Source of the DNA: a virus
Taxonomy: Duplodnaviria; Caudoviricetes
DNA: 64,000 bases
Strand: one strand, 5' to 3'
Virus record (IMG/VR): IMGVR_UViG_2756170199_000003
Span: 32,001-96,000 of that record
Positions 15,413 through 59,850 of this stretch are shown here, piece after piece. The notes under the pieces were generated by a model that made no database searches, was not told the DNA's origin, and saw only the letters and a list, made by a program, of their open reading frames with translations. A program made the position numbers and the translations under genes. Each line of letters begins with the position of its first letter. The first letter of the stretch is position 1.

Positions 15413-15443
15413 TGGACAGGCTGCGGCTGCGGCTGCGGAATCG

Positions 15444-16748: not shown

Positions 16749-16905
16749 AGCAACATCCCCGAAGATTTCTTGTGATCCGGTCTTGTCTGCCTGGTCCGGT
16801 TCGCAGGAGGTCCTTGTTTAAACGAGTCCACAGTTTGCCAGAAGATGACTCAGCCAGTCACAAACGATCCACCCCGCATATGGGTGTGCGCGTTTGTCGC
16901 GAGCG

Positions 16906-19176: not shown

Positions 19177-19194
19177 GTCGTAGTCCTGAATGAT

Positions 19195-19235
19195 GGAAAG
19201 TCTCCGCGCGGCATGGAGATGCGCGGAGACTTTCC
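19195..19235. repeat. 15-bp inverted repeat between the gp181-like and gp182-like genes
   Basis: GGAAAGTCTCCGCGC / GCGCGGAGACTTTCC with an 11-nt loop. Confidence 0.75.
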
Positions 19236-19252
19236 GGGGCTTGCTGCCTGGG

Positions 19253-22200: not shown

Positions 22201-25200
22201 TCAAACCCGCAAGAATCCCGCGGGTCGGTGTGCCCTCCCTGTCCGCATCAACCGCCTTTTCTTTTTCGGCGAGTCCTTTCCTGCGTTCAAGGTCTTCCCA
22301 TGAATTCCGGATAACGCCGGTACCCTCCTCATCGCCAACGACCCGCTTCTTCGGCTTGCGCAGACGCTCGAGCAGGATGTCGCGGATTTCAGTCAGGCGC
22401 TCCGTGATGGTCTTCGAGCCAGCGAACATGATGCCGTCCGGCCCCAGCCACTTGTTGAACCATTCGCCCAGACCCCGGAACGGCGAGAGCGCCAGATCCT
22501 TGAGCGCGCCCGCGCCCTTTCTCACCGCGCCGAGCAACCCCTTGACCGGTGCCATGACGAGCGAGGCGAGCTTCATGAGCGGCGTGCGGATGGGCCGGCC
22601 TTGCGCGTCAACAATGCCTTTGGCCAGGTCCTCCTTCCTGAGCACGACCTGAGGATTATTCCGGTCGCTATGGTCGACCACAGGACCATCGATCATGCCG
22701 GGACGCAGGATCACCCTGTCTTCGTGAAGCTGCGAACGATAGGCGCCTGCGCGCATCATGATCGCAAGCAGACGCGGTTCGCGCTCGCCCTTCACGTAGA
22801 TATCGACGGGCGCATCGAGCAGTTCCATGCCGCGGCGGGCGAGCATCACGCCGGTCTTCGCCGCTCTCATGGCGAGCGAGACAACATCGCTCCTCAGTGT
22901 CTCCGCGGCGCGCCCAAGGAATTTCGCGCCAGCACCCAGTGCCGAAATGAGCTTGCCCTTAGCCCGCCCTGCTTTCGAATACGCCCTTGCAATATCCAAC
23001 GCCCGCAGGACGACGTTGCCGTTGTCCGAGGCATCGATCACATCGCCCTTGATATCCTTGTACGAGCGGATGATGACGCCGGTCTCGCGGTCGCGGTAGT
23101 CGCCATTACGCATCTTGCGCGCGAACAGCACGGGCTCGATGGATTCCGGCAGATAGATGTCCCTGAACCCCTCAGCGTACGCCAGCCCCTTGCGGCCTTT
23201 CACGCCCGCCCAGCCCAGCATCTTCGTGCCGATCCCCGGCTCCTGCCACCATTTCCAGCCCGCCTGCGCCGCCTGCTTCGCTGCGCCCCAACCGGCGCGC
23301 GCACCGCTCTTTGTCGCCTCGACGCCCGCGCTGGCGATGTCCCGCACGGTCCAGTCGGTAAAACGTTTGGGCCGGCGCCCACGCCCCATGCGCTCGCGCA
23401 ACCGTGCGAGCCGTTCTGCTGCACCGCCGGCTGCTCGTCCAGCGGCACGCCCCGCAGCGCGGCCGGCACCCGCAATTCCCTCACCCAAACCTTCGAAATC
23501 CGGCATCGCTGGAACAACGAGAAGCCCTTCCTCGATCTGCTTCTGGATCGCGAGCAGCGTTTCATGGATCTTCGCGGCGAGAGGTTTGCTGCTGTGATCC
23601 CGGATTGCGTCAATCACAGGCCCAAACGCATGGTCGGCCGGCGTGAAGCGATGTCCGAACGAAGTATCCGTGTGCGCTCGCAGCGGCCTGCCCCACTTCT
23701 GCTGGAGGAAAAGATCGACGTCGGCCGCAGCGGTGCCGTGTCGTTCGACCACGCCAGGCATGTCGCTGCGTTCACCTGGCACTGCCTGGTTTTCATCGTA
23801 GGTCACCGGTTGCCGGATTCCCGCCACACCCGCATCGGGTGCACCGGGCGGCACCACGCGATGCGCACCGCCCGTGAAGGGATGACGCCTGCGCCGCGGC
23901 TTCACGGATGACTTTGCGCGACGCGGTGCGCGCATGAACATCTGGATGGGTCGGGGCGTGCGCCGACGTGCCGCCATGATTCCGGCACCGCCCACCGGTC
24001 CCGTCGGCCGAAGACCACCTGCCGCATGCCCGCCCTCCGGCGTATAGTCTTCCGAGAGGTAGTAATCGATCAGGCGGTTCTGGTCGATGTAGCCGTTTTT
24101 GACGATCCCCGCTTCTTCGGCAAACTCGAGCATGCCGGCATTGATCAGTGACTGGACCATCTCGCGTGGATCGGCAATGCCACCGCCCAGACCTGCAAAG
24201 CGGGCATGAAACTCCTTCTGCCGCTCCTCCCGATCCTGTGCCCCGTAGTTCTGGAAGAGCTGCGCGAAGGTTCCCGCATGCTTCGATTCCTCGCCCGCAT
24301 AGCTCCACAGGTCACTGTAGCGTTTGAGTGACCCGGTACGGTTCGCGAAGTTGTCGCGCACAAGACGGCGGATCAACATCTGCCGCTGCTCCGCGGTGAG
24401 CTTCACGCCACCCGTTTTCTCGAGATCATCGATGAGCGAGCCTGCGTGCTCCTGGACGTACTCACGGTCACGCGGCTTCACGATCGATTCGAATGAACGC
24501 CTGAAGGTCTGCGAGCGTTCACGGAAGCGGTTGCCGGTCCAGTCGAACGACGTGAGCTCGACCTTCGTGTCGCCCGTGCGCAGGATCTGCAGCTCGCGAT
24601 AGATGCGCGCGAGAAAGCCCGGGATGATTTCGGTGATCGACTTCCGGACGAGATGCGTGAAAGGCGCGGGCTCCTGCAGGTTACGCAGGTTGTCGACCTG
24701 CACGCCCGTCTGCACGGCTCCCGCACGGATGATCTGGTTCTTGAGCCACTGCACCGCCGAGCCGACCACCGGTGTATCGTCGAGTCGATCCGAATACGCG
24801 AATTCCGTCAGGTGCTGGGGCACGCTCTGCGCCAGATGGCCCGCCGTATGACCGTGGCGCTCGAGGAAATTGCCAGCGCGCGTGCCCTTGAGCGAGCGGC
24901 CGATACGTGAGCCGAGCATCGAAGCGAGGCCGTGTGACGCCAGACCGCCGGCCATGTCGCCAGCCATCTCCGCACCGGAGGGCCCCATGCCTTCCATTCC
25001 CGACATGTTTGCGCCCATGTCGGCCATGCCAAGACCCATCTGTGCGCTGCCCACGAGATTGCGCAGCGACGAGGTGAGCGACGATTTGATCTGGCCGGTG
25101 AGTGAGCGCAGGAAGTTGCTGCGCTGGCCGAGAAACCAGCTGCCCGCGTTGCCCATGAAGCGGTTTCTGAGCAGCGTCGGCCAGTCCTCGCGCATTTTGA

Positions 25201-46122: not shown

Positions 46123-46177
46123 CCCGCCTGCGCCCGCCTCCCCCTTCACTTCTCCGTCTTTCCACCCGGGTTTGGCC

Positions 46178-48820
46178 ATGTACGACTATCTCGTCGATAA
46201 CGCGCTGCGCAACGTCTGGTGTGCGCCCACGCAGGACCGCCAGGCAATCCTGCAGCCCGCGCGCCTCACCCCGGATGGCGGAGTGACCAATAGCGTGCAG
46301 ATCGACTGGTCTGAATACCAGCTGCCGGCAAGCAACGCACCATTCCACGTCTACCAGATCGGACAGATCAGTCCGTGGCTGCTCGGCCTGCTGGCGTGGG
46401 CCATCACCTGGACACCGTTCTCACTGGCGATGAACCGGTTGAACCTGATCGTCGACCTGTATGTGAACTCCGGCATCCAGCTACCGCGCTTCCAGTCGTA
46501 TTTCATGATCACACGCGACCGCAACATCGTGATCGCGGTGCGGTTCCAGCCCACTATCAGCATCAATCTCGATCGCGAGCCACTGTGTCTGCGGCTCTAC
46601 AGCAACGCCTTCTTCCAGAGCCCACGTGCCACCTCCGGCGACACAAAATACGTGATCCAGACGGGCGGGCTGGTACCAAAGCTCAAGAGCGACATCCTGC
46701 CCGTCCAGAACACCGTCACGGCACTTCAGGCACTTCCGGGCGTCGTGTACTGCTTCGTCAACGGCTTCAAGGTCGACGCCATCAATGTCGTCACAGCGCA
46801 GCCCGGCGATGTGGTCGAGTACGTCTATGACAGTTCCATCTACCGGATCGCCGACTTCACGCTGTCCGGCCTGCCGGTATTCAACAGCACGCTCGACAGC
46901 AAGTACAAGTACCTGCTTCATTACGATGGACGCGCCCGACATACCATCGACTTCGAGGACGACATCGATGTGTGGGTAATCTATACGCTACCCACGAGTC
47001 TCACACAGGGCGTCTTCTACCACCACAACGAAGCGGATGCGATCCGCAACGTTACGCACCGCGACTACGCGTTGCCTACGGCCTACGTGGCGGGCTACCT
47101 CGCGGCGCGCGGAAACTGGGAGTCAGAAGCAAACGTCACGATCCGGCTGCACATCCGTCGGGCCGGACTCGAGCGCCCGCTCGTCTACGAGGCCAACCGC
47201 ATTTTCGAGCTTTACAAGCTCAGCGATGCCCAGATCGTGAGCGCATTGGCGGGCGTGAACGCCACGCTTGAAAACTGGCAGGCGGCCACGCTGGAAGCGT
47301 CGCCCTACACCCGGATCATGGGCGCATACGGTGGTGTCGCGGCGAGTTCAGGTGGTGCCAATACCTTCGACCGCCAGACGGTCGAGGATGCGTACGGCTA
47401 TAACGCCACGGGCCGGCTCGTGGGCATGAGCCCGCTGATCCCCGTGCTGGAATCAGGCCAGTTGCTCGTTAGCCTCCCCTACAACCTCCAGAGCAACGTC
47501 ACGGCGTGGGAATACGACAGCAACGGCACGCTGCTTGGCTACTACGGCCACGCGAGCGGTGGCGTGTATGTCTGCGAGAACAGCAACTGTGTGCTCGTCG
47601 AGGTGATCTATGGCGGCGCCGCCCAGATGCCCGACGATACCTACGGGCAGGCCACCCAGTTGATCGATACGCGTCTGGACTACCGCATGTACACGTGCGA
47701 TATCGCGTCTCTCACCGGCAAGCCGCTCTTCAACTGGCGCGACGTCACCGGCAGCAGCCAGTATGCGATCCAGGACGGCATCCTCACGTGGCTGATCGAC
47801 ACCACCAAAGCCTATACATGTGTGCGAAGCAACCGCACGATGCTCGCCTACACGCTGTACATCCAGCCAAAGGAAGGCATCCTGCCGATTGAGATCCAGC
47901 AGCAGGGCATCCTCAACTACGTGCTGCAGCTCTTCGCGATGCAGATCCCGATGGGCCAGCTCGACGTGTTCGTGAACGGCCGCTCCATGATCCAGGGCCT
48001 GGACTATGTGATGCAGTTTCCCACGATCATGATCAACAACGTCTCGGCGCTGTCGTTTCCGCAGGACAGGCAGCAGCAGATCACGATCCGCTGGACCGGA
48101 TTCTGCAGGAACGATCTGTCGATCCCGTCCCATCGCGATACGGGCTGGGTGCAGTACGGGCTGCTCTCGAACAACAACCGCTACAACATCCGCGACGACG
48201 ACGTTACCCGCATCGCGGTGGGCGGTGGCGTGTTCCCGAAGTCCGCACTAAAATTCGCCGAAGACGACGCCAACATCCTCTCGCCGCTGCCCGTCAACGG
48301 GCTGCCGTATCAGGTGCAGAAGGTGGTGGTGCCGATGCTGGGGGTCACCAACGAGGATACCCAGACCTACTTCGACAAGGCTCTCGCGATCGACCGGGCC
48401 GTCGAAGACTACATGACGCTCTACTATCCGCTGCCGGCTCCCGGTGCAGCAAGCGGCCCGGACGTCATCAACGCGCTCTACCCGCTTTTCAGCCCCTTCT
48501 GCTGCAAGATCATCTACGACCTCGTGCTCGGCATCATCGACGAGACACCCCTGCAATCGTTCTACAACGACGACTTCGTGCGTGGAGTCTGCCAACCCTA
48601 TGAGTATCTGCTGGCGTTCGACCCGACCCAGCCAGCCACCGCGCAGGATCCGCGGTTCGTGAGGATCCAGCCGCACAACCTGACCGTGACCATTGCGCTC
48701 GACATCTATGCGTACAACTTCGTGAACAACGTGATCCGCATCTATCTGAACAACCTGGTGCTGCTCAACAACTACGTATCGATTGCCGATCTGGCGGGTA
48801 GCAGCGCGATCGGCAGTTGA
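46178..48820 (+). CDS. Large virion structural (baseplate-region) protein (phiKZ gp27-like)
   Basis: LVDNALRNVWCAPTQDRQ, KYLLH, THRDY, YGYNA, DVFVNGRS.I.GLDY motifs. Confidence 0.75.
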   Translation: MYDYLVDNALRNVWCAPTQDRQAILQPARLTPDGGVTNSVQIDWSEYQLPASNAPFHVYQIGQISPWLLGLLAWAITWTPFSLAMNRLNLIVDLYVNSGIQLPRFQSYFMITRDRNIVIAVRFQPTISINLDREPLCLRLYSNAFFQSPRATSGDTKYVIQTGGLVPKLKSDILPVQNTVTALQALPGVVYCFVNGFKVDAINVVTAQPGDVVEYVYDSSIYRIADFTLSGLPVFNSTLDSKYKYLLHYDGRARHTIDFEDDIDVWVIYTLPTSLTQGVFYHHNEADAIRNVTHRDYALPTAYVAGYLAARGNWESEANVTIRLHIRRAGLERPLVYEANRIFELYKLSDAQIVSALAGVNATLENWQAATLEASPYTRIMGAYGGVAASSGGANTFDRQTVEDAYGYNATGRLVGMSPLIPVLESGQLLVSLPYNLQSNVTAWEYDSNGTLLGYYGHASGGVYVCENSNCVLVEVIYGGAAQMPDDTYGQATQLIDTRLDYRMYTCDIASLTGKPLFNWRDVTGSSQYAIQDGILTWLIDTTKAYTCVRSNRTMLAYTLYIQPKEGILPIEIQQQGILNYVLQLFAMQIPMGQLDVFVNGRSMIQGLDYVMQFPTIMINNVSALSFPQDRQQQITIRWTGFCRNDLSIPSHRDTGWVQYGLLSNNNRYNIRDDDVTRIAVGGGVFPKSALKFAEDDANILSPLPVNGLPYQVQKVVVPMLGVTNEDTQTYFDKALAIDRAVEDYMTLYYPLPAPGAASGPDVINALYPLFSPFCCKIIYDLVLGIIDETPLQSFYNDDFVRGVCQPYEYLLAFDPTQPATAQDPRFVRIQPHNLTVTIALDIYAYNFVNNVIRIYLNNLVLLNNYVSIADLAGSSAIGS

Positions 48821-48837
48821 TCGATGCCGGAGGTCGC

Positions 48838-50544
48838 ATGTCCGACTTCGGAAGTTCAGTCGAGCTGCCGGTCGGCACCGACGGCGGCGTACCCATCAAG
48901 AGCCCCGACAACAGCCTGTGGGAGATCTGGGCCTACCAGAATCTCTGGCTCGGCGCCGCGGGCACGAACAAGTACATACCGAAGATCAACGACTACGTCT
49001 GCGACTACACGATCAACCAGTGGTGGAGAGTCGCGCTGGTCGATCCCGTCACCTACGTGCCGACGCTCGTGCCGCTCACCACCACACCCAATGCGGCGAT
49101 GACCGAGGGGGACCTGCTTCAGGGCGTGGGGCTTGGCACGCTTGCCGACACGTTTCGCGTCTATCTCGACACCAGCGTCATTCCGTTCATCCTCGCCGTG
49201 GACGGCAGGCTCTGGTATCCGGGGCCCGATGTCGCGTCAGTCAAGCTTTTCACGGGCGCGGATTTCACCACCAACGAGAACTGCATCAGCGGCTACTACG
49301 ACCAGTCGGGCAAACTGGTTTCCCAGGCGATTCCCCTCGCACCCGTGTCGGTCGAGTTCCCCGATGGCTCCATGGGTACGGTCTCAGGCGTGCCGGTCTG
49401 TTACACGAACGTGCGTCTGGCTGACGCCACGCCGGTCACCGCGGTCGCCTACTCCTCGACCGGTGCAGTCGTATCCATCCGGCAGCTCCTGATCCAGAAC
49501 ACCGGTTGCATCCGTCTGGCCGACTCCGGCGTGAAGTATGTCGTGGGGATCGAACTCAGGACACCGTTCCTCTCAAGCTCGGACCCGACGCTCATCCAGT
49601 TCCCGATCAATGTGATTCTCGCGAACCTGAACCTGATGGGCATTGTGCGTTACAGCGACGGTTCGAGCGCCATGCTGCCAGTGGACAACACGAAGTTCCA
49701 GATACTCGGCTTCAATGCCTTTGTCTCGACAATCGTCGGACAGTCCTTCAACGTCGTGCTCAAGTACAACCTCTCGCCCGACGAGGCGGTCTTCAACGCG
49801 AATTCGGTCGAACAGCAGGGGTTCATCACCCGGGCCTACCGGATGACGTCCATCAACTCCGCCGGTGCGTACGCTCTCAAGCTCTTCGCTTTCCCCGTCT
49901 GGCGCGACAGTGTCACGGGCTACCGGCTCGACTGGTTTCTCTACAACCTCGATCGCAGCACCTGGTGGAATGTCACGAGCCTGGTGCAGTTCTCGCCAGC
50001 TTTTCCGGCCTTCCAGCCGCTGCAGTACGGCGTGCAGCAGGACATCAACGCACAGGTGCAGCTGAGCAAGGTCGACCTGAGCTTCACGAACTATCTTTTC
50101 AGTGCCACGCTGGCGATCACGCTGCTTGGACCCGGCATGCAGGACTCGCCCTGGCAGATCCAGTTCGAGCCTGGGCAGATGCCCCCCTACGGTCCCGGCA
50201 ATGTCGCAGCTGTCAACGAGGTCCAGGCCAACCAGTACACGATCAATATCGCCAGCGGCTATAAAAAGCAGGGCGACTGGCTACAGGCGCTCTATTACAA
50301 CACCCTGCCGCTGACCGATCCGGCCACCGAGGCGAAGTTGCCGGTGCCGAGCCACTTCGCGATCCAGATGCCCGATGGCAGCGAGCCGATCGTCTGCCCG
50401 ATCTCGCAGTGGGCGGCGACGTTCAGCACGAGCGTGACGATTCCCGACGACAGCACGCTCTACGTAACGTTCTTCCTGCGCACCACGACCAACGACCTGC
50501 AGCTCTCGATCTGCGGCCTGCCGGTGCGCTATCCGGGTACGTAG
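48838..50544 (+). CDS. Virion structural protein (phiKZ gp26-like)
   Basis: GGAGG RBS; KYIPKINDYV, FRVYLDTSV.P..L.VD, Y.LKLF.FP.W motifs; assigned by synteny with terL. Confidence 0.7.
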   Translation: MSDFGSSVELPVGTDGGVPIKSPDNSLWEIWAYQNLWLGAAGTNKYIPKINDYVCDYTINQWWRVALVDPVTYVPTLVPLTTTPNAAMTEGDLLQGVGLGTLADTFRVYLDTSVIPFILAVDGRLWYPGPDVASVKLFTGADFTTNENCISGYYDQSGKLVSQAIPLAPVSVEFPDGSMGTVSGVPVCYTNVRLADATPVTAVAYSSTGAVVSIRQLLIQNTGCIRLADSGVKYVVGIELRTPFLSSSDPTLIQFPINVILANLNLMGIVRYSDGSSAMLPVDNTKFQILGFNAFVSTIVGQSFNVVLKYNLSPDEAVFNANSVEQQGFITRAYRMTSINSAGAYALKLFAFPVWRDSVTGYRLDWFLYNLDRSTWWNVTSLVQFSPAFPAFQPLQYGVQQDINAQVQLSKVDLSFTNYLFSATLAITLLGPGMQDSPWQIQFEPGQMPPYGPGNVAAVNEVQANQYTINIASGYKKQGDWLQALYYNTLPLTDPATEAKLPVPSHFAIQMPDGSEPIVCPISQWAATFSTSVTIPDDSTLYVTFFLRTTTNDLQLSICGLPVRYPGT

Positions 50545-50582
50545 CGGGATAACTGCTCGAGGCACCGGGCCAGTATCTGACC

Positions 50583-50623
50583 AGCGCCGGGACCGCCTGA
50601 GCGATACAGGCGGTCCCGGCGCT
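50583..50623. repeat. 17-bp GC-rich hairpin just upstream of terL
   Basis: AGCGCCGGGACCGCCTG / CAGGCGGTCCCGGCGCT with a 7-nt loop and no poly-T. Confidence 0.75.
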
Positions 50624-50643
50624 TCTGACGGGAGGGCGTCAAC

Positions 50644-52905
50644 GTGATCCTCTTCCTCGATGATTTCAGCCTGTATCCGCGCGCCATCATCGACACCGAA
50701 ACCACCAACGAGAGCTTCGTGAGGCTCGCGGCGATCTACCGCAAGATGGGGATACGTAACCACGCGTTTCTCCTCGCGCTGCTCAATCCTGATCTGCAAG
50801 GCGTGGACCCATTTTCTCCCGATCTCACGCTCGATCAGATGGCGGCGATCGCCGTCGAGTGCAAGACCAATCCCTTCTATTTTTTCCGCGAGGTATGCCG
50901 CATACCCATGAGCGGCAGCACCGAAGCCGTCCCGTTTCAGGCCAGCCGCGGCAACATCGCGCTCATCTGGTGCTTCTTCAATCACCTGATGATCTTCCTC
51001 GTGATGATCCGGCAGACCGGTAAGTCGGTGGCGGCCGATACGCTCATGGTGCTGTTGCTCAACTTCATCTGCGTGAACACCGAAATCAACCTGCTCACGA
51101 AAGATGAAATCCTGCGGCGCACCAACGTGGACCGCATCAAGAAGATCATTGATGAGTTGCCACCCTACCTGCAGCAGCGCACCCGGCAGGACACGCACAA
51201 CGGCGAGGAAATCAGCGTCAATCGCCTTGGCAACAAGTACAAGACGCACGTCCCGCAGGCGTCCGAGAAAGGCGCCTACAAGGTGGGACGAGGCCTCACC
51301 ACGCCGGTCATCCAGATCGACGAAGGACCGTTCCAGCCGAATGTGAGCATTGCCGTACCGTCCGCACTCGCCGCGCGCAATGCAGCAGTCGACGCGGCCC
51401 GCGCGAATGGTTCGCCTTATGGCGTCATTTTCACCAACACCGCGGGCAAGATCGACGACCGCGACGGCGCCTTCATCTATCGCATGCAGGGCAGCGCCGC
51501 ACCGTGGAACGAGAAATTCTTCGACGCTGCAGACGCCCAGGAGCTCGAGCAGCTGGTGCGCAAGTCCTCCCACGGCGAGAAAACCCCCGACGGCAGCCGG
51601 CGCAGTGTCTATCGCGTGAACATCACGTTCGGCCACCGACAGCTCGGCAAGACCGACGAATGGCTACGGGAAAAGATCGAGGAAGCTGCGGTCAGCGGAG
51701 ACGACGCGAATCGGGACTTCTTCAATATGTGGACCTCCGGCACGCAGACGCATCCCCTGCGACGCGAAGTCCTCGAGCGGATTGTGGAATGCCGGCAGGA
51801 TCCAAAGTTCACCGAGATCAGCAAGGAAGGCTATATCACGCGCTGGTATGTGGAAGAGCACGCGATCGAGGCAAGAATGCGTGCCGGGCGCTTCGTCATC
51901 GGACTGGACCCGTCAAACGCCTCCGGTGGTGACGACATCTCGCTCGTCGCGCTCGATATCGACACACTTGAGGTCGTCGCCGCGGGCACCTATAACGAAA
52001 CCAACATCCTGCTTTTCTGCAGCTGGGTAGCGCAGTGGCTGATCCGCTGGGACACCACGACGCTGGTCATTGAGAACCGCAGTCTCGGGCAGGCCCTGAT
52101 CGACTACCTGCTCTACATGCTGCCAGGACACGCCATCGATCCGTTCCGGCGGCTCTTCAACCGGATCGTCCAGGAGTACGACGAGCTGCCGGCCCGCTTT
52201 CACGAGATCCAGGTACCGATGGGACGACGCCCCACCGACATCTACACGCGATACAAGAAGGCGTTTGGCTTCACGACATCGGGCGGTGCTGGTATCTATT
52301 CGAGAAGCGAGCTCTATTCGGCCTCGCTCCAGCTTGCCGCCAAACGCGCGGGTGCGCTCAGCTACGATCCGGTGCTGATCGAACAGATCGCCCATCTGAC
52401 CACACGCAATGGCCGCATCGATCACGAAGAAGGCTTGCATGACGACATGGTGATCGGCTGGCTGCTGGCCCACTGGCTCGTCACTCGCGGCAAGATGCTG
52501 GCGTTCTACGGGATCGACGACCGGCGCATTGGCTCAGCACTGCACGTGGGCTCGCGCGAGAGCGTCATTGATCATGCGATACGCCGCGAGCAGCAGGCGA
52601 TCCAGGAGGAGATCCGGCGCCTGTACGACGAACTCTCCCGCGAACCCAACGAATGGGTAGCCGCGCGCATTGAACATCAGATGCGCCTGCTCGACCGCCG
52701 CGTAGTCCTGCAGGAAGGTGAAATCTTCAGCATGGACACCTTGATCAACCAGGCAAAGGACAGGAAGCGGGAACGAAGACTGCAGCGTCGCACGGCGACG
52801 CCTCCTGCGGACCCAAGCCCCCCACCCCAGGGATTCTTCAGCGACATTCCGCCGGGCGTCACACCGGGCACCCCCGTGCGCACACTCAAACGTGGTGGCT
52901 GGTAA
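50644..52905 (+). CDS. terL: Terminase large subunit (phiKZ gp25-like)
   Basis: NPFYFFRE, Walker A IRQTGKS, GRGLT..VIQIDE Walker B, IGLDPS nuclease Asp, VIENRS, RIDH...HDDMVI; GTG start. Confidence 0.92.
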   Translation: MILFLDDFSLYPRAIIDTETTNESFVRLAAIYRKMGIRNHAFLLALLNPDLQGVDPFSPDLTLDQMAAIAVECKTNPFYFFREVCRIPMSGSTEAVPFQASRGNIALIWCFFNHLMIFLVMIRQTGKSVAADTLMVLLLNFICVNTEINLLTKDEILRRTNVDRIKKIIDELPPYLQQRTRQDTHNGEEISVNRLGNKYKTHVPQASEKGAYKVGRGLTTPVIQIDEGPFQPNVSIAVPSALAARNAAVDAARANGSPYGVIFTNTAGKIDDRDGAFIYRMQGSAAPWNEKFFDAADAQELEQLVRKSSHGEKTPDGSRRSVYRVNITFGHRQLGKTDEWLREKIEEAAVSGDDANRDFFNMWTSGTQTHPLRREVLERIVECRQDPKFTEISKEGYITRWYVEEHAIEARMRAGRFVIGLDPSNASGGDDISLVALDIDTLEVVAAGTYNETNILLFCSWVAQWLIRWDTTTLVIENRSLGQALIDYLLYMLPGHAIDPFRRLFNRIVQEYDELPARFHEIQVPMGRRPTDIYTRYKKAFGFTTSGGAGIYSRSELYSASLQLAAKRAGALSYDPVLIEQIAHLTTRNGRIDHEEGLHDDMVIGWLLAHWLVTRGKMLAFYGIDDRRIGSALHVGSRESVIDHAIRREQQAIQEEIRRLYDELSREPNEWVAARIEHQMRLLDRRVVLQEGEIFSMDTLINQAKDRKRERRLQRRTATPPADPSPPPQGFFSDIPPGVTPGTPVRTLKRGGW

Positions 52906-52970
52906 TTCGAGATAGCCGAATCGCATGAAACTGCGCTCACTATTCGCAATACACATTGCGCCCTGACAAT

Positions 52971-53011
52971 TGTTGAAGATTCAAGGGCACCAGGTCGTTG
53001 AATCTTCAACA
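52971..53011. repeat. 14-bp AT-rich inverted repeat at the terL/vgrG junction
   Basis: TGTTGAAGATTCAA-N13-TTGAATCTTCAACA. Confidence 0.8.
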
Positions 53012-53126
53012 CTCAGCCGCTATAAAGTGAGATGGCCCTTAAAAGGTCGCAATCACGGCTCATCTCAATATAGCAGTCCTCCCCTTCGGGCCGTGCCTTC
53101 CTCAAAATCCAGGGAGCTCTACGCCT

Positions 53127-55634
53127 ATGGCGGACTTGCTGAACGCATTGCAATCGATACCTGGCCGGCAGGCGTACTTTCTCGAAGTGCCCGGTACGGC
53201 AGCTGCCGCGGCGTTGTCCGTGGTGTCGTTCGATGCGACCGAAACGATGGGCTCGCCCATTGAGGTGAGCATCGAACTCACCCATCCCCTGCAGCTCGCA
53301 CGCGCGGACTTCCTGAACCGCGACGCCACATTCTCGATCGTGCCCGACGACGGTGTGCCGAAGAAGTTTTCGGGATACATCGAGCGCTTCTCGACGATCA
53401 AGACCACGAAGGACTTCACCCGGTACCGTCTGGTCCTGAAGTCACATTTCGGGCGCCTGCAGGCGGTTACCAACACGCAGGTTTTCCAGCACCTCACCAC
53501 CCCGCAGATCATCCGGCAGATCCTGAGCTCACACGGTATCAGGGATCACCAGATGTCCTTCCGGCTGCGCGGCAAATACCCCAAGCATCTGTGGCGTTTC
53601 CAGCACCAGATGACAGATTTTTCCTATGTGCACATGCTCATGGAAAAGGCTGGCATTTACTGCTTCGTCGTCGAGACCGAATACGGTGACCAGATTGTTT
53701 TTGGTGACGACATCGACCACTACATCTACGACCCCCGTCTCATCGTCCCCTATCGCGAAGCAGCCGGCCTTGAAGCCGGTGGTAGTGAGGCGATAACGTC
53801 GATCAGAACACATAGCGTGACGGTGCCGCAGTCCATCGTCGTCGCTGACTACAACCCGGATCAGGCGTGGGAGCGTTTTCGAGATGAGGCCAACCTCGCC
53901 CCGCAGGACGAAACCACCTACGGCCAGACCTACATCTACGGCACCAACCACCTCGATCAGGACGGCGCCAAGTGGGAAGCACAGCTGCGACATGAGGCGG
54001 CCCTCGCCCGCCAGGTGATCTACGAGGGTGAGAGCAATGTGCTAGCGCTTCAGTGTGCTCGTGTACTCGAAACAGACATCGCGCTACCCGACGCCCCGAA
54101 GGGCCAGGTGGTCATCGAAGTCAAGCACAGTGGCGCGCGCGACAAGGGCTATTCGAACACGTACAGGGCGATTCCTGCGGACCGGCGCTTCCGGCTCCAG
54201 CTCGAGCCTTCGAATTGGGCAAAAATCCCGGGGACGCTTTCGGCACGAATTTGCAGTCCCGATAAATATTCCTTTGGCTACCTCAATTCCGTTGGCTACT
54301 ACGTCGTCAGACTCGATGCCGATTTTGGTACCTGGTCGAAGGGTGGCGAGAGCGTGCCGTTGCGTCTCGCAAAACCCTTCGCCGGCAAACTGCAGACCGG
54401 CATGCACTTCGTCGCGCTGGATAACGACGAGGCAAAGATCTCCTTCAGGGATGGGGACCCGGACAAGCCAGAAATCAGCGGCTTCCACCACCATAGCCAG
54501 GCCCGCGATCTGGTGACGAATGACCGCCGCTGGCTGTCCCGCAACATGATCCGTACGCAGAAGAACAACAAGCTGCGTATGGAGGACTGGAACGGACAGG
54601 AAGGCATCAAGCTTAGCACGGACCACTCGGGCAAGTCACAGCTCAATCTCGGCTACCTCGTCAATGGCAAGCTTGAATACCGCGGCGAGGGGCATGAGCT
54701 CCGCACATCGGGATGGGGGGTACTGCGCGCCGGCAAGGGCGTGATGGTGACCAGCTATGACCGCCCAGGCGCCACTGGCGCACAGCGCGACATGCAGGAG
54801 ACGATGGCGCAACTGGACAGCGCGCTGGAGCTCGCCAAAGCGCTCGCGGCATCCGCCACCAGCGCCAAGGCGGAACCTGCCGACACCAACGCGCAGCAGC
54901 AGGTGAAGGATGATCTGGATAACCTGAAGAAGCCAGGCTTGCTGATGAGCACGCCAGCCTCCGCTGCATTGGTAGCGGCCGGTGGCATCCAGTTCTCGGC
55001 GGAAGACAACATCACTGGCGTAGCCGGCAGGAATGCTGACTTCAGTGTCATGAAACGCTTTACCGCCGCGGTCGGCGAGAAGATTTCGCTGTTCGCGCAG
55101 AAGTTCGGCATCAAGATCTTCGCAGCCAAAGGCCCCGTTGATTTCCAGGCACAGGGCGGGCCGATGTCGCTTACCGCGGCCAAGGACGTCAACGTCGGCA
55201 GCGTCAATGGCAAGGTCAATCTCGCGGCGGCCAAGGAAATCATCCTCGAATGCGGAGGTGCGTTCGTCCAGATCAAGGACGGCAGCATCACGCTCGGCGG
55301 TCCGGGCGATCTGTTCTTCAAAACGATCACCGTACAGAAGAAAAGCAAAGCGTCGCAAACGCCAGCTTTCCCTGTCCTGCCCGATGGCAATATCTACGAG
55401 CAGGACTTCAAACTCGTCAATCACGCGGACGGCACCTTACTCCGGAACGCAGCATACAAGATCACGTCCGAAAGCGGCACCCAGTTCGCAGGCGTCGCTT
55501 CGGACAACGCAATCACACGTCTTGCTGTGACCAGTCCCGCCGAGAAACTCACGGTCAAACTGAATTCCGAAGATGCCGACACCTATCACCAGCATCTCCG
55601 CGATGCGTGGGGCAACCCCGCATCCAACGATTGA
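53127..55634 (+). CDS. vgrG: Type VI secretion spike VgrG (DUF2345-type) with C-terminal transthyretin-like extension
   Basis: DFSYVHMLMEKAGIY, RLAKPFAG..GMHF, F.DGDPDKP, NKLRMED..GQEGIKLST..GKSQLNLG.LV, GHELRT..WG.LRAGKG, GIKIFAAKGPV; tail YEQDFKLVN..G.....YKI. Confidence 0.95.
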   Translation: MADLLNALQSIPGRQAYFLEVPGTAAAAALSVVSFDATETMGSPIEVSIELTHPLQLARADFLNRDATFSIVPDDGVPKKFSGYIERFSTIKTTKDFTRYRLVLKSHFGRLQAVTNTQVFQHLTTPQIIRQILSSHGIRDHQMSFRLRGKYPKHLWRFQHQMTDFSYVHMLMEKAGIYCFVVETEYGDQIVFGDDIDHYIYDPRLIVPYREAAGLEAGGSEAITSIRTHSVTVPQSIVVADYNPDQAWERFRDEANLAPQDETTYGQTYIYGTNHLDQDGAKWEAQLRHEAALARQVIYEGESNVLALQCARVLETDIALPDAPKGQVVIEVKHSGARDKGYSNTYRAIPADRRFRLQLEPSNWAKIPGTLSARICSPDKYSFGYLNSVGYYVVRLDADFGTWSKGGESVPLRLAKPFAGKLQTGMHFVALDNDEAKISFRDGDPDKPEISGFHHHSQARDLVTNDRRWLSRNMIRTQKNNKLRMEDWNGQEGIKLSTDHSGKSQLNLGYLVNGKLEYRGEGHELRTSGWGVLRAGKGVMVTSYDRPGATGAQRDMQETMAQLDSALELAKALAASATSAKAEPADTNAQQQVKDDLDNLKKPGLLMSTPASAALVAAGGIQFSAEDNITGVAGRNADFSVMKRFTAAVGEKISLFAQKFGIKIFAAKGPVDFQAQGGPMSLTAAKDVNVGSVNGKVNLAAAKEIILECGGAFVQIKDGSITLGGPGDLFFKTITVQKKSKASQTPAFPVLPDGNIYEQDFKLVNHADGTLLRNAAYKITSESGTQFAGVASDNAITRLAVTSPAEKLTVKLNSEDADTYHQHLRDAWGNPASND

Positions 55635-55679
55635 CCGCGTATTTCTGAAAGCATTCCAGTAACCAAAGGTTCCGAGAAT

Positions 55680-56651
55680 ATGGGCAAACGCATTCCACAA
55701 GAAGCAGAAGATCCAGCCTACGAAAGTGACCAAACACGGCCTCAGGCAACCACGCCTGTCGCCAATCTTGCGGAGCCGATCTCCAAGGGATACCTCTGCA
55801 AAAAGTGCTGCGCCGCACTTAACAAACCGCGTCGAAACCGGTTGAACCACCCGATGTACCAGCGCACCGTGACTCGCTCGATCTGGGAAGACAACGTCGA
55901 AAAGCGACAGTATTTTCGCTATAAGGGCGAGGTCGGCTATGACATGACGAAAAAGCCACCGGCTCCGATCATGTCGGCCAAGAAAAAGGAAGAAAACCGC
56001 CCCAGCGAGTTTCCGTTAGCTGGAATCTGGCGCATAAAGCGCGAACTCCAAGCGGTGGTCGAAACTGCTGGAGAGGCCGCGGGAGACCTGATAACACGAA
56101 ACGAGCTCGAAGCGCTTGGCGGTTCGGTATTGCGCATCCCAGACGTCATTGTCCTTCATTGTGATAGTGATCTTCTCAAACAACTCGAATCCCAAACGGC
56201 CGATATCAAACGCTTCATTCCAGAACAGAAGAATATTGAGCGGATCGTTGAGGTTAAGTTCTTCGACGATACCCTCTCGGAATATCAAGGTCGCGCGTAT
56301 AGTCAGATTGCAGGGCCAGCCGAATTCAACCTCCTTGAACCGACGAACCCAGATCCAGATTGCGGTTGCGGATGTCAGAAGGACGAAAAAAAACAGAAGA
56401 CAGAGCAAAAGCAAACCTCTCGATCGTCTGCTTCTCAGCGTCCGCCAATTCCGTTCATTCCGCCTGTTACACCGCCGCGCGGCGGGAAAGATGAGGACCG
56501 TCTTATCGTTGACCCAGTCGCTTCGAGTTCATACGACGGCGAGCAATCATTGAGCGATGTATTACCCCGCACACCAACGAGCAACTTGTCAGGCTCCTCA
56601 GTGATACTGCTCGACGTGCTGCTTATACTCGCTGCGGCCGCAGCCCTTTAA
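55680..56651 (+). CDS. T6SS nuclease effector, VRR-Nuc/TseV-like (PD-(D/E)xK)
   Basis: YKGEVGYDM...PPAPIMS, RIPDVIV...IVEVKF..D.....Q..AY..IAG, CGC; between vgrG and the immunity gene; visibly lower GC. Confidence 0.8.
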   Translation: MGKRIPQEAEDPAYESDQTRPQATTPVANLAEPISKGYLCKKCCAALNKPRRNRLNHPMYQRTVTRSIWEDNVEKRQYFRYKGEVGYDMTKKPPAPIMSAKKKEENRPSEFPLAGIWRIKRELQAVVETAGEAAGDLITRNELEALGGSVLRIPDVIVLHCDSDLLKQLESQTADIKRFIPEQKNIERIVEVKFFDDTLSEYQGRAYSQIAGPAEFNLLEPTNPDPDCGCGCQKDEKKQKTEQKQTSRSSASQRPPIPFIPPVTPPRGGKDEDRLIVDPVASSSYDGEQSLSDVLPRTPTSNLSGSSVILLDVLLILAAAAAL

Positions 56652-56668
56652 CTGATCCAGACTCCGAA

Positions 56669-57688
56669 ATGACATCTGACGAACTCGACGACTACGTTTA
56701 CGACTGCGACCGCACAGCCCCTGACAGCCCTGAAGGAGCTGACTTCCGATACGTGGTGAAACTCGTACTTCGCGCCACGTTATTTTTTCGCGCAGGACAC
56801 ACGCAGGAAATTCGCCAGGGACTGAAGGCCTGCTTCGACGAGTATTTTCTGGCATTCGGCAAGAATCTGCATTGGGGATGGGAACCCCAACCATCCGGAA
56901 AGCCGACGCCTCGAATCTTCGATCAAAATCTTATCGATGCTACTCGTAGTGCCTTCGACAACACGAAAGAAGGTAGCAACATTGAACTCGCTTTCATGAG
57001 CGGATTTAACCAATACTACGTTGGCGATTATGGAATCAAGTGTCTGACCATGCCAAACTGGGAAGACTCAATGGGTTACGATTCCTATTTCAGCTTCTGG
57101 TTGCCTTGTGATACTTATCATGAAGGCCGATGGGATGGTGGCAATTTCCCTGCCCATGAATTCCTGCTTGCGTGCTGCAAACGTCTTAAAGCTTCACAAG
57201 GCTACGCTGGATTCGCTCTTGCGCTGCCGCACGAATATGCCAAATGGGAACCCTACGAACTGAAGTTGGCCCAAAAATACTACGGACTGGAGATCGACAA
57301 GGCAGCGGCAACATCACTCATGATCGACGAGTGGCGCGGAGTCAAGGACGTCAACTGGTACACCATCCTTGGCGAACCCTATGTTGAAAAATTAGGCGGC
57401 AACCACGCCATCCGCGCAAAGCTTGCAGCCCCCAACTTTCAGCTTTACGACTTTGGCGCAGGGATTACCATCCGGGCAGGCGCTGAACCTGAAATGGCTC
57501 CAGTAAGCAATGGTCTGCCATCTGCATATGTAGCAGTCAATGACGTCATTCGACCAATCAGGACGACACAAATCCGATCGATGGGTCTTGGCTCAAACGC
57601 AGGCGAATTGCGCTTCAATATCCGACTGACTGACCTGTGGATGAGACGGTTTGATGCGCCGGGGATTTGGCCGCCGGCACATCCATAA
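56669..57688 (+). CDS. Cognate T6SS immunity protein (DUF3396/TsiV-like)
   Basis: ATLFF..GH.....R...CFDEY, GYAGF, E..LA..YYGLEID, GVKDVNWYTILG...VEKLGG, P..Y..VN....P.R, W.RRFD. Confidence 0.82.
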   Translation: MTSDELDDYVYDCDRTAPDSPEGADFRYVVKLVLRATLFFRAGHTQEIRQGLKACFDEYFLAFGKNLHWGWEPQPSGKPTPRIFDQNLIDATRSAFDNTKEGSNIELAFMSGFNQYYVGDYGIKCLTMPNWEDSMGYDSYFSFWLPCDTYHEGRWDGGNFPAHEFLLACCKRLKASQGYAGFALALPHEYAKWEPYELKLAQKYYGLEIDKAAATSLMIDEWRGVKDVNWYTILGEPYVEKLGGNHAIRAKLAAPNFQLYDFGAGITIRAGAEPEMAPVSNGLPSAYVAVNDVIRPIRTTQIRSMGLGSNAGELRFNIRLTDLWMRRFDAPGIWPPAHP

Positions 57689-57786
57689 CACGGCCAATCG
57701 TGTTCGATTAACAGCGGCAGGCCCCCGTCCCGTATATCGCAACGGTTTGCGACGACGGTGGCCTGACCGCATCGAATGAGGTTTGC

Positions 57787-58419
57787 GTGACAAGTAATGA
57801 ACGTACGGCTCACCGCCGTGTACTGCCATTTTTCTGCTCACCGCCGGCATGGGTTCTGATTCGCGTCGATGTGCCGGGACTCTCCATTGTGAGAGAACGC
57901 ACCGAGCATGGTGGAGCGGTGCTGTGCTTCCTGTCGCTACTCGACGCGATGATCGAGGTCGTCCATGCCGCACGCGTTGGCAGGGAGTTGCGTATCCTTC
58001 GCGCATCAGATGTCGATTTCAGTCTGTTCCGGGACCTCGACGGACAAGGACTGCTCGCGAGCCTGCATAGTGCATGGCTCGCATCGGGTCCGAAGATCCT
58101 TGCCCGACCATCTGGCGTCTTGGCTAGGTTCACAACGGACCTACATGAATGGGCCGGCGATCCGGTTTTCTTCGAAGTTCAGTCGGACACGCTTGGCTTG
58201 TTCAACGACACCTATGAACTGGCAGGTCTTTTCGCCTGGCGCGAGACCAATCAAATCGTACAGCGATGGGACGAGGCACGCCTTCGCGACGCCGCGAAAA
58301 GAGCGCTCAATGCGGTTGAGGTGACAGGCGGTCAAGCGGAGGACTGCAACGGCTTGGCCCTGTTCAATCCTGAGTCAATGGAATGGCACTTCGTGCCGCC
58401 CAGAGAGCAGGAATCGTGA
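57787..58419 (+). CDS. Hypothetical bacterial-type protein
   Basis: GAGG RBS with GTG start; 210 aa ending ALFNPESMEWHFVP. Confidence 0.55.
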   Translation: MTSNERTAHRRVLPFFCSPPAWVLIRVDVPGLSIVRERTEHGGAVLCFLSLLDAMIEVVHAARVGRELRILRASDVDFSLFRDLDGQGLLASLHSAWLASGPKILARPSGVLARFTTDLHEWAGDPVFFEVQSDTLGLFNDTYELAGLFAWRETNQIVQRWDEARLRDAAKRALNAVEVTGGQAEDCNGLALFNPESMEWHFVPPREQES

Positions 58420-58557
58420 GCAGCAACACCTTTGTCCAGCCTGGTCGTGGATTCGTCGGCCGGTCCATCAATCGCGTGGTCGCGCTGCACACTGCTTCAG
58501 AACGTGCTCCGGTTGATCTTTGCCCGGCTGCCTATCATGCAGCCGGATAGCGTCGTC

Positions 58558-59787
58558 TCATGTCCCTGAGTAGTGCCGCATGGTCATCGTACGGATTACG
58601 ATGTAGAGAAGGATCGCTGTGCGTACCGATGCAATCACGCTGTCGTTCCGGTTTCCCGTGGCCTTCTTCACGCACCACTCGGCTTTATCCCTGAGCGAAA
58701 AGAGCGCAGGATCGATGCTGCGCGACGAAGTATAGACCCCACGCAGCCTGGCAAGGAGCGTCGGCAGATCCACGTGGTTGCGCACCATGGTGCGCTCTTC
58801 AGCAAGATAGTCGAAGCTGTGAATGAGCGTTTCGTCGAGCAGATCGCCGATGCGCTTCGCAGCTGAGTGCTGGTAGCTGTCCGAAATCCATTCGAGTGTC
58901 TGCCGGAAGAGGCGTGGCGGTGTCGTGTACATCAGCTTGCAGATCAGCTCGAACAGCTCTTCCTTGATGAACGAGTGCCGGTCGGTGACGATCGAGTGCA
59001 GGTACCGCGTGTACGCAATCAGGTTGCGGTTACGATCCTTGAGCACCACGTTACCATCGTAGTCGACGAGCGACGAGCTCGACTGGATGCGCATACCCTG
59101 ATGATGGACCTGCAGGAACACGTCGTAAATGTTCTTGAGCATGTCGCGGATGCGGCTTTGCGTATCGTTGAGCAGGTAGATCACCTCGAGGTCGTTGTCC
59201 ATCCGGGAGATGGTCTTGAAATGCAGGCCCTGGGGGGAGATGAGGTCGCGCGTACGCTGCTCCAGCACGGCGTTCCACGTGCCAAACTGCTTGATCGCGA
59301 ATTTACCGGACAGCAGCGCGTAGGTGGCCTCCGCTGTGGCCCGGTCGGCGGGATAGCGGAAGTGGCGAAAGAGGCGGGAGGTCAGAAACTTGTACTGGAG
59401 CACGAGCGCAACGTCCATCATGGTTGTCTGCTTCGCGGCGTCGTTGAGTTTCGGGCTCACGTAAAGCGCGTGCAGCAGCCATGCGCACGAGAGATTCATC
59501 GTGTCACTGGAGACCTTGAAGGTGGGATTGACGGTAGGTAGCGCGACGAGCTCCTGGGCAAGCACACCCTCTTCGACTTTCAGGATCTCCTCGAACCACC
59601 GGTCACGGTCGTCGTCGGTGAAGCGCACCACCTCCACGCCCGTGAGATTGCCGCCAAAGAACTTGATGTGATCGGGGTTCTTGAAAACAAAGGCGTGACG
59701 GTACTGGCTTACCCTGCGGGCGAATGCTGCATCCATCGCGAGGTCGTGGCAAGCCTCGAGGAACACGCCCTCGATGTTTTTCGCCAT
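58558..59787 (-). CDS. Conserved phiKZ-like virion structural protein (gp32-like)
   Basis: FFGGNLTGV...RF...D...WF, F.VSSD..NL, LQYKFLTS, A.ATY..LS.KF.IK..G.W, YTSSRS motifs. Confidence 0.7.
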   Translation of the reverse strand: MAKNIEGVFLEACHDLAMDAAFARRVSQYRHAFVFKNPDHIKFFGGNLTGVEVVRFTDDDRDRWFEEILKVEEGVLAQELVALPTVNPTFKVSSDTMNLSCAWLLHALYVSPKLNDAAKQTTMMDVALVLQYKFLTSRLFRHFRYPADRATAEATYALLSGKFAIKQFGTWNAVLEQRTRDLISPQGLHFKTISRMDNDLEVIYLLNDTQSRIRDMLKNIYDVFLQVHHQGMRIQSSSSLVDYDGNVVLKDRNRNLIAYTRYLHSIVTDRHSFIKEELFELICKLMYTTPPRLFRQTLEWISDSYQHSAAKRIGDLLDETLIHSFDYLAEERTMVRNHVDLPTLLARLRGVYTSSRSIDPALFSLRDKAEWCVKKATGNRNDSVIASVRTAILLYIVIRTMTMRHYSGT

Positions 59788-59850
59788 GGCCAATTCCTGA
59801 AATCCGATGAAAAGCCGCTGAGGAGCCGCCGGCAGCGTCCGGGTGCGGCT

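Follow-up and report, generated by a model that had tools for sequence, protein, structure and literature searches.

What is a set of type VI secretion system (T6SS) genes doing directly behind the large terminase gene of a jumbo phage? The question is raised by a 64,000-nucleotide (nt) stretch of viral DNA (positions 32,001 to 96,000 of the IMG/VR record IMGVR_UViG_2756170199_000003), hereafter the window, in which a spike gene (vgrG), a nuclease gene, an immunity gene of the TsiV type (DUF3396) and a fourth open reading frame (ORF), orf210, occupy positions 52,906–58,419. We think that this cassette is a mobile T6SS auxiliary module, carried as exchangeable cargo on a jumbo phage with a chimallin gene, which Paraburkholderia hosts would maintain as a plasmid-like replicon of about 280 kb, and we put the probability of this explanation at roughly 0.7. 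The module is intact. Phage cargo of this kind is known; what is new and surprising is the kind of vehicle. Coordinates below are those of the window unless the record or a contig is named.

The four ORFs are all intact and co-oriented on the plus strand, where the initial annotation of the window had placed them, and its description of a co-oriented vgrG, nuclease and DUF3396 cassette between phage genes was borne out by the ORFs and by the Pfam and PHROG searches. The gene order is vgrG (53,127–55,634; 835 amino acids, aa), the nuclease gene (55,680–56,651; 323 aa) and the TsiV gene (56,669–57,688; 339 aa), separated by gaps of 45 nt and 17 nt, and orf210 (57,787–58,419; 210 aa) follows at the 3′ end of the insert. 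VgrG matched the Pfam families Phage_GPD (8e-54), T6SS_Vgr (1.5e-31) and DUF2345 (2.1e-41), as well as NCBIfam TIGR01646 (vgr_GE) with 192.6 bits against a cut-off of 121.8 and coverage of aa 31–500, and it has the gp27-like hub, the gp5-like domain and the beta-helix extension (T6SS_Vgr plus DUF2345) of a T6SS TssI protein. Its conserved core reaches to about position 55,361 (aa ~745), and the last ~90 aa form a variable, cargo-specific tail. A transthyretin-like fold had been proposed for this tail, which was not confirmed, as searches with hidden Markov models (HMMs) gave no match; a single-sequence model of the tail is all-beta with a low predicted local distance difference test score (pLDDT) of 59, and the VgrG-Tle1 structure of enteroaggregative Escherichia coli (6SJL) appeared at Foldseek rank 3 with a weak E value of 0.15.

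The HMM domain check suggested by the initial annotation was clear for VgrG and TsiV, and for the nuclease the Pfam VRR_NUC match (E 1.1e-4, 22.7 bits) fell slightly below the gathering score of 23.8. The same profile was matched by 13 of the 16 members of the nuclease family at E ≤ 0.01 (best 2.2e-6), and D155 (in IPD), E191 and K193 (in an EVK motif) and Q203 are invariant in the 16 sequences, following the pattern PD...ExK...Q of a VRR-Nuc-like PD-(D/E)xK nuclease. This family is small, with about 20 clusters, and comes from Burkholderiaceae wherever the source was named. The protein has neither a PAAR domain nor a signal peptide and carries a linker of low complexity and, at its C-terminus, a hydrophobic helix; the predicted architecture is that of a VgrG cargo effector and not of a PAAR-fused effector. 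Its structural model (mean pLDDT 62.5) found weak fold neighbours only (Foldseek E ≥ 0.19, Z ≤ 4.6), and nearly all of them are PD-(D/E)xK nucleases, including FAN1 and stand-alone VRR_NUC domains (Foldseek, VIA-align). The TsiV protein matched PF11876 with E 2.6e-44 and 152.1 bits against a cut-off of 25, covering profile positions 3–271 of 271, and aligned with PA0821 (PDB 7DRG) over aa 30–330 with E 5.7e-34. Its gene starts 17 nt past the toxin gene in the same orientation, and homologues of toxin and immunity protein are adjacent elsewhere too, for example at locus tags AC233_26055/26050. Gene identities, intact catalytic residues and the pairing of toxin with immunity gene are thus direct observations. 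For orf210, searches of Pfam, PHROG and NCBIfam gave no match, and Atlas gave only unnamed proteobacterial clusters.

How the cassette came to lie at this position is best seen from the relatives. On the left it is bordered by terL (50,644–52,905, plus strand; 753 aa, intact), which follows DUF7193 and a PHROG virion protein, and on the right by phrog_2921 (58,558–59,793, minus strand; 411 aa), a conserved phage gene that is convergent with terL, is 65–92% identical in relatives and is followed by DUF7484. The order DUF7193, virion protein, terL (forward) and phrog_2921 (reverse) is kept over about 30 related loci, and in most of these the slot between the convergent genes is empty and measures ~0.55 kb. 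The slot is 1.7 kb long in Caballeronia arationis and 3.2 kb in Paraburkholderia adhaesiva, where it lacks VgrG and holds an NlpC/P60 gene (3.7e-31), an Adhesin_E-like gene, a 170-aa ORF and DUF2513, which may be another effector-immunity pair or lysis cargo. In the HC6.4b element it reaches 6.3 kb and contains a VgrG (82% identical), ORFs of 450 and 175 aa that resemble neither the nuclease nor TsiV, and a homologue of orf210 with 34% identity. Nucleotide homology between the window and its relatives ends at 52,857–52,910 on the terL side and resumes at 58,562–58,571. Between the window and HC6.4b there is further homology at 52,956–55,361, with 81% nucleotide identity over 170 nt of upstream DNA and VgrG aa 1 to ~745; past 55,361 it is lost and returns exactly at the stop codon of phrog_2921. 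The break at VgrG aa ~745 reads as a classical effector-cassette exchange at the VgrG C-terminus. The terL/phrog_2921 junction is a hot spot for cargo, in which the same VgrG core is combined with different effector-immunity pairs. No family was found for the HC6.4b effector pair, which is probably a cell-wall toxin with its immunity gene; for the 450-aa protein, Atlas gives only lysozyme, peptidoglycan-binding and VgrG3-C-like leads that score below 0.9. On a 275,198-bp Joint Genome Institute (JGI) contig, which counts for the gene set only since the slot position is not visible there, VgrG, nuclease and TsiV are 92%, 51% and 62% identical to those of the window and all full length. Neither direct repeats nor att sites nor target duplications were detected in the flanks of the cassette.

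This comparison of the junction, which the initial annotation had proposed as a check, rules out a one-off chimeric assembly, because the slot is empty in most relatives and filled with other cargo in the closest ones. An artefact in the wider sense, either a chimeric assembly or host contamination of the viral bin, could be suspected from the labelling of the record as a provirus of 52% completeness and from the GC dip over the toxin-immunity pair. We consider it very improbable, as the terL-vgrG junction with its conserved upstream DNA occurs in two independent assemblies (HC6.4b and Paraburkholderia unamae), the same three genes are found in a third (the 275-kb JGI contig), and phage genes lie on both sides of the cassette on a single contig. 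As for the arrangement of the slot itself, the phrog_2921 homologue and terL of Burkholderia phage FLC9 are co-oriented and lie upstream of inverted virion genes (FLC9 14,471–24,074), and in the Paraburkholderia lineage terL is flipped, so that the two genes converge and the cargo slot arises between them (46,172–59,793 of the window). Some distant IMG/VR relatives are also non-convergent, with the phrog_2921 homologue upstream of terL on the same strand.

The source of the cassette is indicated by its VgrG, which is 70–80% identical to many chromosomal Paraburkholderia VgrGs (78% in the case of one on a 2.59-Mb P. pallida contig) and 77% identical to the VgrG of the decayed P. unamae copy described below. 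In a maximum-likelihood tree, the window VgrG pairs with that of the 275-kb contig (support 100) and falls, together with the terL-site VgrG of HC6.4b, into a clade of seven members with a support of 98 in the Shimodaira-Hasegawa-like approximate likelihood ratio test (SH-aLRT). The P. unamae VgrG belongs to the sister group (94 SH-aLRT), a few chromosomal or context-unknown sequences are interspersed, and the phage-borne clade is nested inside chromosomal Paraburkholderia VgrGs. The GC content at third codon positions is 0.79–0.85 in the phage genes, 0.75 in vgrG, 0.56 in the nuclease gene, 0.54 in the TsiV gene and 0.62 in orf210, with a GC dip over the toxin-immunity pair, and the effector-immunity pair is compositionally foreign. 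The likeliest history would be a single capture of a host VgrG island by the ancestor of the sublineage, followed by repeated replacement of the effector-immunity pair. A tblastn search of phages with VgrG gave partial matches only (Acinetobacter and Ralstonia records of the prophage type) and none of full length, the flanks of 19 metagenomic VgrG loci (52–80% identical) contained neither terL, phrog_2921, the nuclease nor TsiV, and a scan of IMG/VR with VgrG returned the HC6.4b record only.

Foreign composition could also mean that the cassette is a neutral or decaying hitch-hiker, that is, host DNA picked up by illegitimate recombination with no role for phage or host. The tolerance of the slot for unrelated cargo, such as the NlpC/P60 and Adhesin_E-like genes of P. 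adhaesiva, and the decayed copy in P. unamae would fit such an origin. However, the ORFs are all intact in the window and in HC6.4b, the 275-kb contig has full-length homologues, nucleotide identity is kept at ~81% over the VgrG core and the candidate promoter region before it, and the stronger divergence of toxin (51%) and immunity protein (62%) compared with VgrG (92%) is typical of active effector-immunity pairs. We therefore regard a functionless passenger as unlikely and retain the view that the cassette is an exchangeable T6SS module.

The vehicle is equally unusual. The window lies inside a 138,880-bp record, classed as 'provirus' and 52% complete in IMG/VR, whose terL matches PHROG 2 (9e-53) and is 56% identical to that of FLC9 and ~42% identical to those of Pseudomonas phiKZ-like phages, with RP12 also among the nearest. 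The record encodes a chimallin-family protein at record positions 105,105–106,370 (PF25677, 36.9 bits against a cut-off of 27) and a ParB protein whose ParB_N score of 26.4 bits is barely over the cut-off of 26.3. With this chimallin gene and its phiKZ-type core, the record is, judged by its gene content, a phiKZ-like, Chimalliviridae-like phage. Its closest relatives are contigs of Paraburkholderia isolates, with a terL identity of 87% in both P. adhaesiva ZD32-2 and the HC6.4b element, an IMG record that matches Paraburkholderia sp. HC6.4b. The P. adhaesiva relative is a contig of 284,264 bp, and because the assembly consists of only five contigs (the others measure 3.38, 1.91, 0.91 and 0.49 Mb), it is most likely a whole replicon. 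The lineage, with its ParB/rep genes, most likely occurs as a plasmid-like replicon of ~280 kb in Paraburkholderia isolates. The vehicle does not look like a simple lytic jumbo phage, given ParB/rep and the occurrence as a ~280-kb replicon in isolates. This terL was found in 3 of 213 Paraburkholderia species representatives; the PLSDB plasmids contained no Paraburkholderia relative of it, and a near-identity DNA search with 50–60 kb of the window against the INPHARED phages gave no match.

Several further features of this lineage were observed. The segment containing the ParB gene (record positions 128,459–131,144, corresponding to 180,626–183,312 of P. adhaesiva contig 5) is the best-conserved one, with 90.7% nucleotide identity against 68–86% elsewhere, and its place is the phage core rather than the bacterial-type arm. 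The phage core of P. adhaesiva contains two neighbouring tyrosine recombinase genes (contig 5, 57,017–59,238); the pair is absent from our record, where the matching gap (record positions 7,941–8,327) measures ~0.4 kb. Related elements from independent sources have sizes of 275,198, 278,988 (with terminal repeats), 282,688, 284,264, 284,983 and 286,074 bp, and this range of 275–286 kb, despite ~68 kb of bacterial cargo in P. adhaesiva, hints at a packaging-size constraint.

Does the lineage also bring the machine that the spike would need? Contig 5 of P. adhaesiva, the 284-kb sister replicon, carries at ~20–48 kb a T6SS cluster with 12 of 13 core genes (TssE not counted), comprising TssJ, G, F, A, M, PAAR, Tli3, Tle3, VgrG, TssC, B, K, L, an OmpA-type protein, Hcp and ClpV. 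Phage genes homologous to FLC9 occupy 49.6–265.7 kb of this contig, and the remaining ~68 kb hold the T6SS together with transporters, oxidoreductases, PdxA, a LysR regulator and a porin. Our record is colinear with 49.8–188.6 kb, and its first base is a gene start codon located where the P. adhaesiva T6SS cluster ends. The exact ATG start indicates that the record is a gene-boundary trim of a longer contig, and a start at the T6SS border is to be expected if a 'host-like' arm was cut off by provirus trimming. The gene at record position 1 is an NlpC/P60-like ORF of 191 aa with a secreted product, and the sister replicon is homologous from record position 846 onwards.

A second trace of this linkage is preserved in P. 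unamae CATux-332. A contig of 75,539 bp contains, at ~48–75 kb, a fossil of the replicon, in which a T6SS cluster is orthologous to that of P. adhaesiva (TssC 79%, ClpV 80% and Hcp 92% identical) and is followed by a SET-domain gene that also occurs in the phage lineage, an insertion sequence, the last ~170 codons of terL and a VgrG gene. After VgrG come three small ORFs, for which no family was found, a split TsiV gene and the 3′ half of phrog_2921, and then unrelated bacterial DNA. The contig is colinear with the P. adhaesiva replicon minus ~87 kb of phage genes, which indicates that the T6SS cluster and the VgrG island at the terL site were once together on an ancestor molecule. The phage lineage is physically linked with T6SS genes in several strains, and this is evidence that it is tied to the T6SS more deeply than the window shows. 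A bolder idea is that a nucleus-forming phage-plasmid sublineage is the vehicle of a whole T6SS, with the cluster in the trimmed ~68-kb arm and the terL hot spot as its two parts; we offer it tentatively, with the odds somewhat against it. If it were true, carriers would kill non-carriers and cells that lose the replicon, a supposedly lytic virus would become a long-term resident, and T6SS islands would now and then be left behind in chromosomes, for which the P. unamae fossil would be an example. In three distant relatives that are complete (278,988 bp with terminal repeats, 284,983 bp and 323,678 bp), neither TssC nor VgrG was present. The possibility that a second VgrG of HC6.4b (P0056) is orthologous to the cluster VgrG of P. 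adhaesiva was rejected at 41% identity, so that P0056 does not indicate the same T6SS in HC6.4b.

The island seems to be equipped for expression in resident cells. A motif of the form TTGAnn-17-TATAA(A/G), ~100 nt before vgrG, is kept in the window, HC6.4b and P. unamae with a diverged spacer, and behind it come a ~100-nt leader, which is conserved, and the ribosome-binding site AGGGAG. In the window this candidate sigma-70-type promoter lies at 52,998–53,026 on the plus strand (TTGAAT, 17 nt, TATAAA) and fits transcription by the host RNA polymerase. A consensus promoter and terminator scan performed at chance level and missed the motif, since its −10 element ends in A. Just after terL, a perfect 14-bp inverted repeat can be read from the sequence (52,971–53,011, plus strand; arms 52,971–52,984 and 52,998–53,011, with a 13-nt loop), which overlaps the −35 element of the candidate vgrG promoter and is absent from the HC6.4b and P. 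unamae islands.

From these elements the following course of action may be proposed, in which expression, loading, secretion, toxicity and the T6SS partner are what we infer. In carrier cells, the island would be transcribed from its own host-type promoter, and the nuclease would bind to the variable C-terminal tail of the VgrG trimer, be mounted on a T6SS and be fired at neighbouring cells. From what is known of the family, the T6SS could be encoded either on the host chromosome or, in its untrimmed part, on the replicon itself. The nuclease would then cut the DNA of cells without TsiV, by analogy with TseV2 and TseV3, and TsiV would protect carriers; cells losing the replicon would become targets, whereby the host would be armed and the replicon stabilised. 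That the cassette arms and immunises its carrier had already been suggested in the initial annotation; homology and context support this, horizontal acquisition is supported as well, and use through the T6SS of the carrier cell appears to be the most plausible mode.

A related explanation is that the cassette serves defence. TsiV would be the selected function, keeping the host of the phage alive under TseV-type attacks from Paraburkholderia neighbours until transmission of the replicon, and VgrG and toxin would be baggage. TsiV is intact and is the best-supported gene of the set, attackers exist, as homologous toxin-immunity pairs are common on Burkholderiaceae chromosomes, and pieces of TsiV are still found in the P. 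unamae fossil. But VgrG and toxin are intact too, the catalytic residues are invariant, and HC6.4b has swapped the effector pair while keeping VgrG, which points to selection on delivery; moreover, the TsiV gene of P. unamae is split. Pure defence is therefore unlikely as the whole explanation, and a protective benefit is compatible with the offensive module that we prefer.

The initial annotation had also raised two ideas in which the phage itself uses the nuclease, and neither found support. In the first, a VgrG-nuclease complex would sit in the contractile tail tip and be injected on infection. VgrG shares homology with the hub and spike proteins of phage baseplates (Phage_GPD) and the cassette lies among virion and packaging genes; however, FLC9 and the three relatives of 278,988, 284,983 and 323,678 bp, each rated 100% complete, lack VgrG, the protein is 70–80% identical to ordinary chromosomal T6SS VgrGs, its gene sits in a variable slot behind its own host-type candidate promoter, and an immunity gene would be purposeless for a virion weapon. 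We consider this highly unlikely. In the second, the nuclease would destroy host or competing DNA inside the infected cell while the phage genome is shielded in a chimallin nucleus, as the presence of the chimallin gene and the lack of a signal peptide on the nuclease might suggest. Against this, the TsiV gene 17 nt downstream would neutralise the nuclease in the producing cell, the slot of HC6.4b contains a different effector with lysozyme-like leads only, and the toxin gene is linked to VgrG and occurs with its immunity gene on chromosomes without phage genes. Intracellular degradation has very little probability in our view.

A number of results weigh against the preferred explanation of a T6SS-delivered module. 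TssC, Hcp and PAAR were not found in the 138,880-bp record, which has no T6SS core gene. To this extent the cassette is an 'orphan', as it had been called, although the record is trimmed and the sister replicon carries a T6SS. The supposed dependence on a host T6SS is likewise uncertain, as the sister replicon has 12 of the 13 core genes but its cluster VgrG is only 37% identical to the window VgrG, and P. adhaesiva lacks any VgrG of the window type. At least eight VgrGs of this type are dispersed over the contigs of P. unamae, and the partner may be a chromosomal T6SS that uses such dispersed VgrG islands. A purely lytic phage in its natural host would leave little time for T6SS use. The Pfam score of the nuclease is sub-threshold, its fold matches are weak (Z ≤ 4.6), and searches of the PDB with the sequence and with the family profile matched no solved structure. 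Homology is also no guarantee of activity, since TseV1 and TseV4 of Salmonella are non-toxic (PMC9635880).

Jumbo phages that form a nucleus are considered obligately lytic, which is part of the reason why they are favoured in biocontrol and therapy. Probable plasmid-like persistence, an exchangeable T6SS island and a near-complete T6SS on the replicon of at least one member are therefore unexpected for a chimallin lineage. If the cassette is active, it would represent a new route by which interbacterial weapons spread among soil and rhizosphere Burkholderiaceae, and there would be a selective reason to keep a 'lytic-type' giant virus, as carriers would kill cells that lack or lose the replicon. 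As the P. unamae fossil demonstrates, cargo of this type does find its way into other bacterial DNA. In the literature searched, full-text matches for jumbo phage, VgrG and type VI secretion dealt with other subjects, judging by their titles and abstracts, and a chimallin-encoding jumbo phage-plasmid as a vehicle of T6SS cargo was not found.

Among the known systems, the temperate phages of Ralstonia come closest. They carry VgrG auxiliary clusters, which phiRSY1-like phages were shown to transmit (PMC11481896, PMC5694545), and the carriers include phiRSY1-like P2 myoviruses as well as sipho- and inovirus prophages (PMC11481896, PMC5694545). As here, the hosts are Burkholderiaceae, a full-length T6SS-type VgrG is combined with toxin and immunity genes in a cargo region by the packaging genes, and the clusters are read as arming the lysogen. 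However, the Ralstonia vehicle is a 40-kb integrating phage, whereas the one described here is a ~280-kb phiKZ-like, plasmid-like element with chimallin and ParB; the myovirus clusters mostly encode lipases instead of a VRR-Nuc-like toxin, and here the sister replicon also carries the T6SS machine. The toxin itself resembles the TseV/TsiV systems (TseV1-4/TsiV1-4 of Salmonella bongori and PA0822/PA0821 of Pseudomonas aeruginosa) in its VRR-Nuc-type D/E/K residues, its DUF3396 neighbour and its association with vgrG. Researchers have found that S. bongori TseV2 and TseV3 are toxic, Mn-dependent, structure-specific DNases that need the conserved Asp, and that DUF3396 proteins neutralise them (PMC9635880). 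S. bongori TseV1-3 carry at their N-terminus a PAAR-like domain, which our nuclease lacks, and the latter, known from its sequence alone, is divergent and has a C-terminal hydrophobic helix.

Other phage-borne modules share the logic and differ in the vehicle. The temperate Burkholderia gladioli phage AB4 has a PAAR2-TseV-TsiV cluster, known from annotation only (PMC13366799); this is also a TseV/TsiV-type module on a phage of the Burkholderia group with a proposed competitive benefit to the host, but it relies on PAAR delivery and a conventional prophage, whereas delivery by VgrG is proposed here. Aux3 of Vibrio cholerae (PMC7721734) is an effector-immunity module on a phage-like element that is retained for interbacterial competition; it is a small integrase-dependent island without virion genes, in an unrelated host and with another toxin (PMC7721734). 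Finally, chimallin-encoding jumbo phages have been found to persist in isolate cultures, with their genomes appearing as separate contigs in 'pure' bacterial assemblies (bioRxiv 10.1101/2024.12.31.630880), much like the Paraburkholderia elements. In the screen, those phages were classed as free of genes for plasmid replication and partition, and T6SS cargo is not reported for them, whereas the present lineage combines ParB/rep with bacterial-type cargo.

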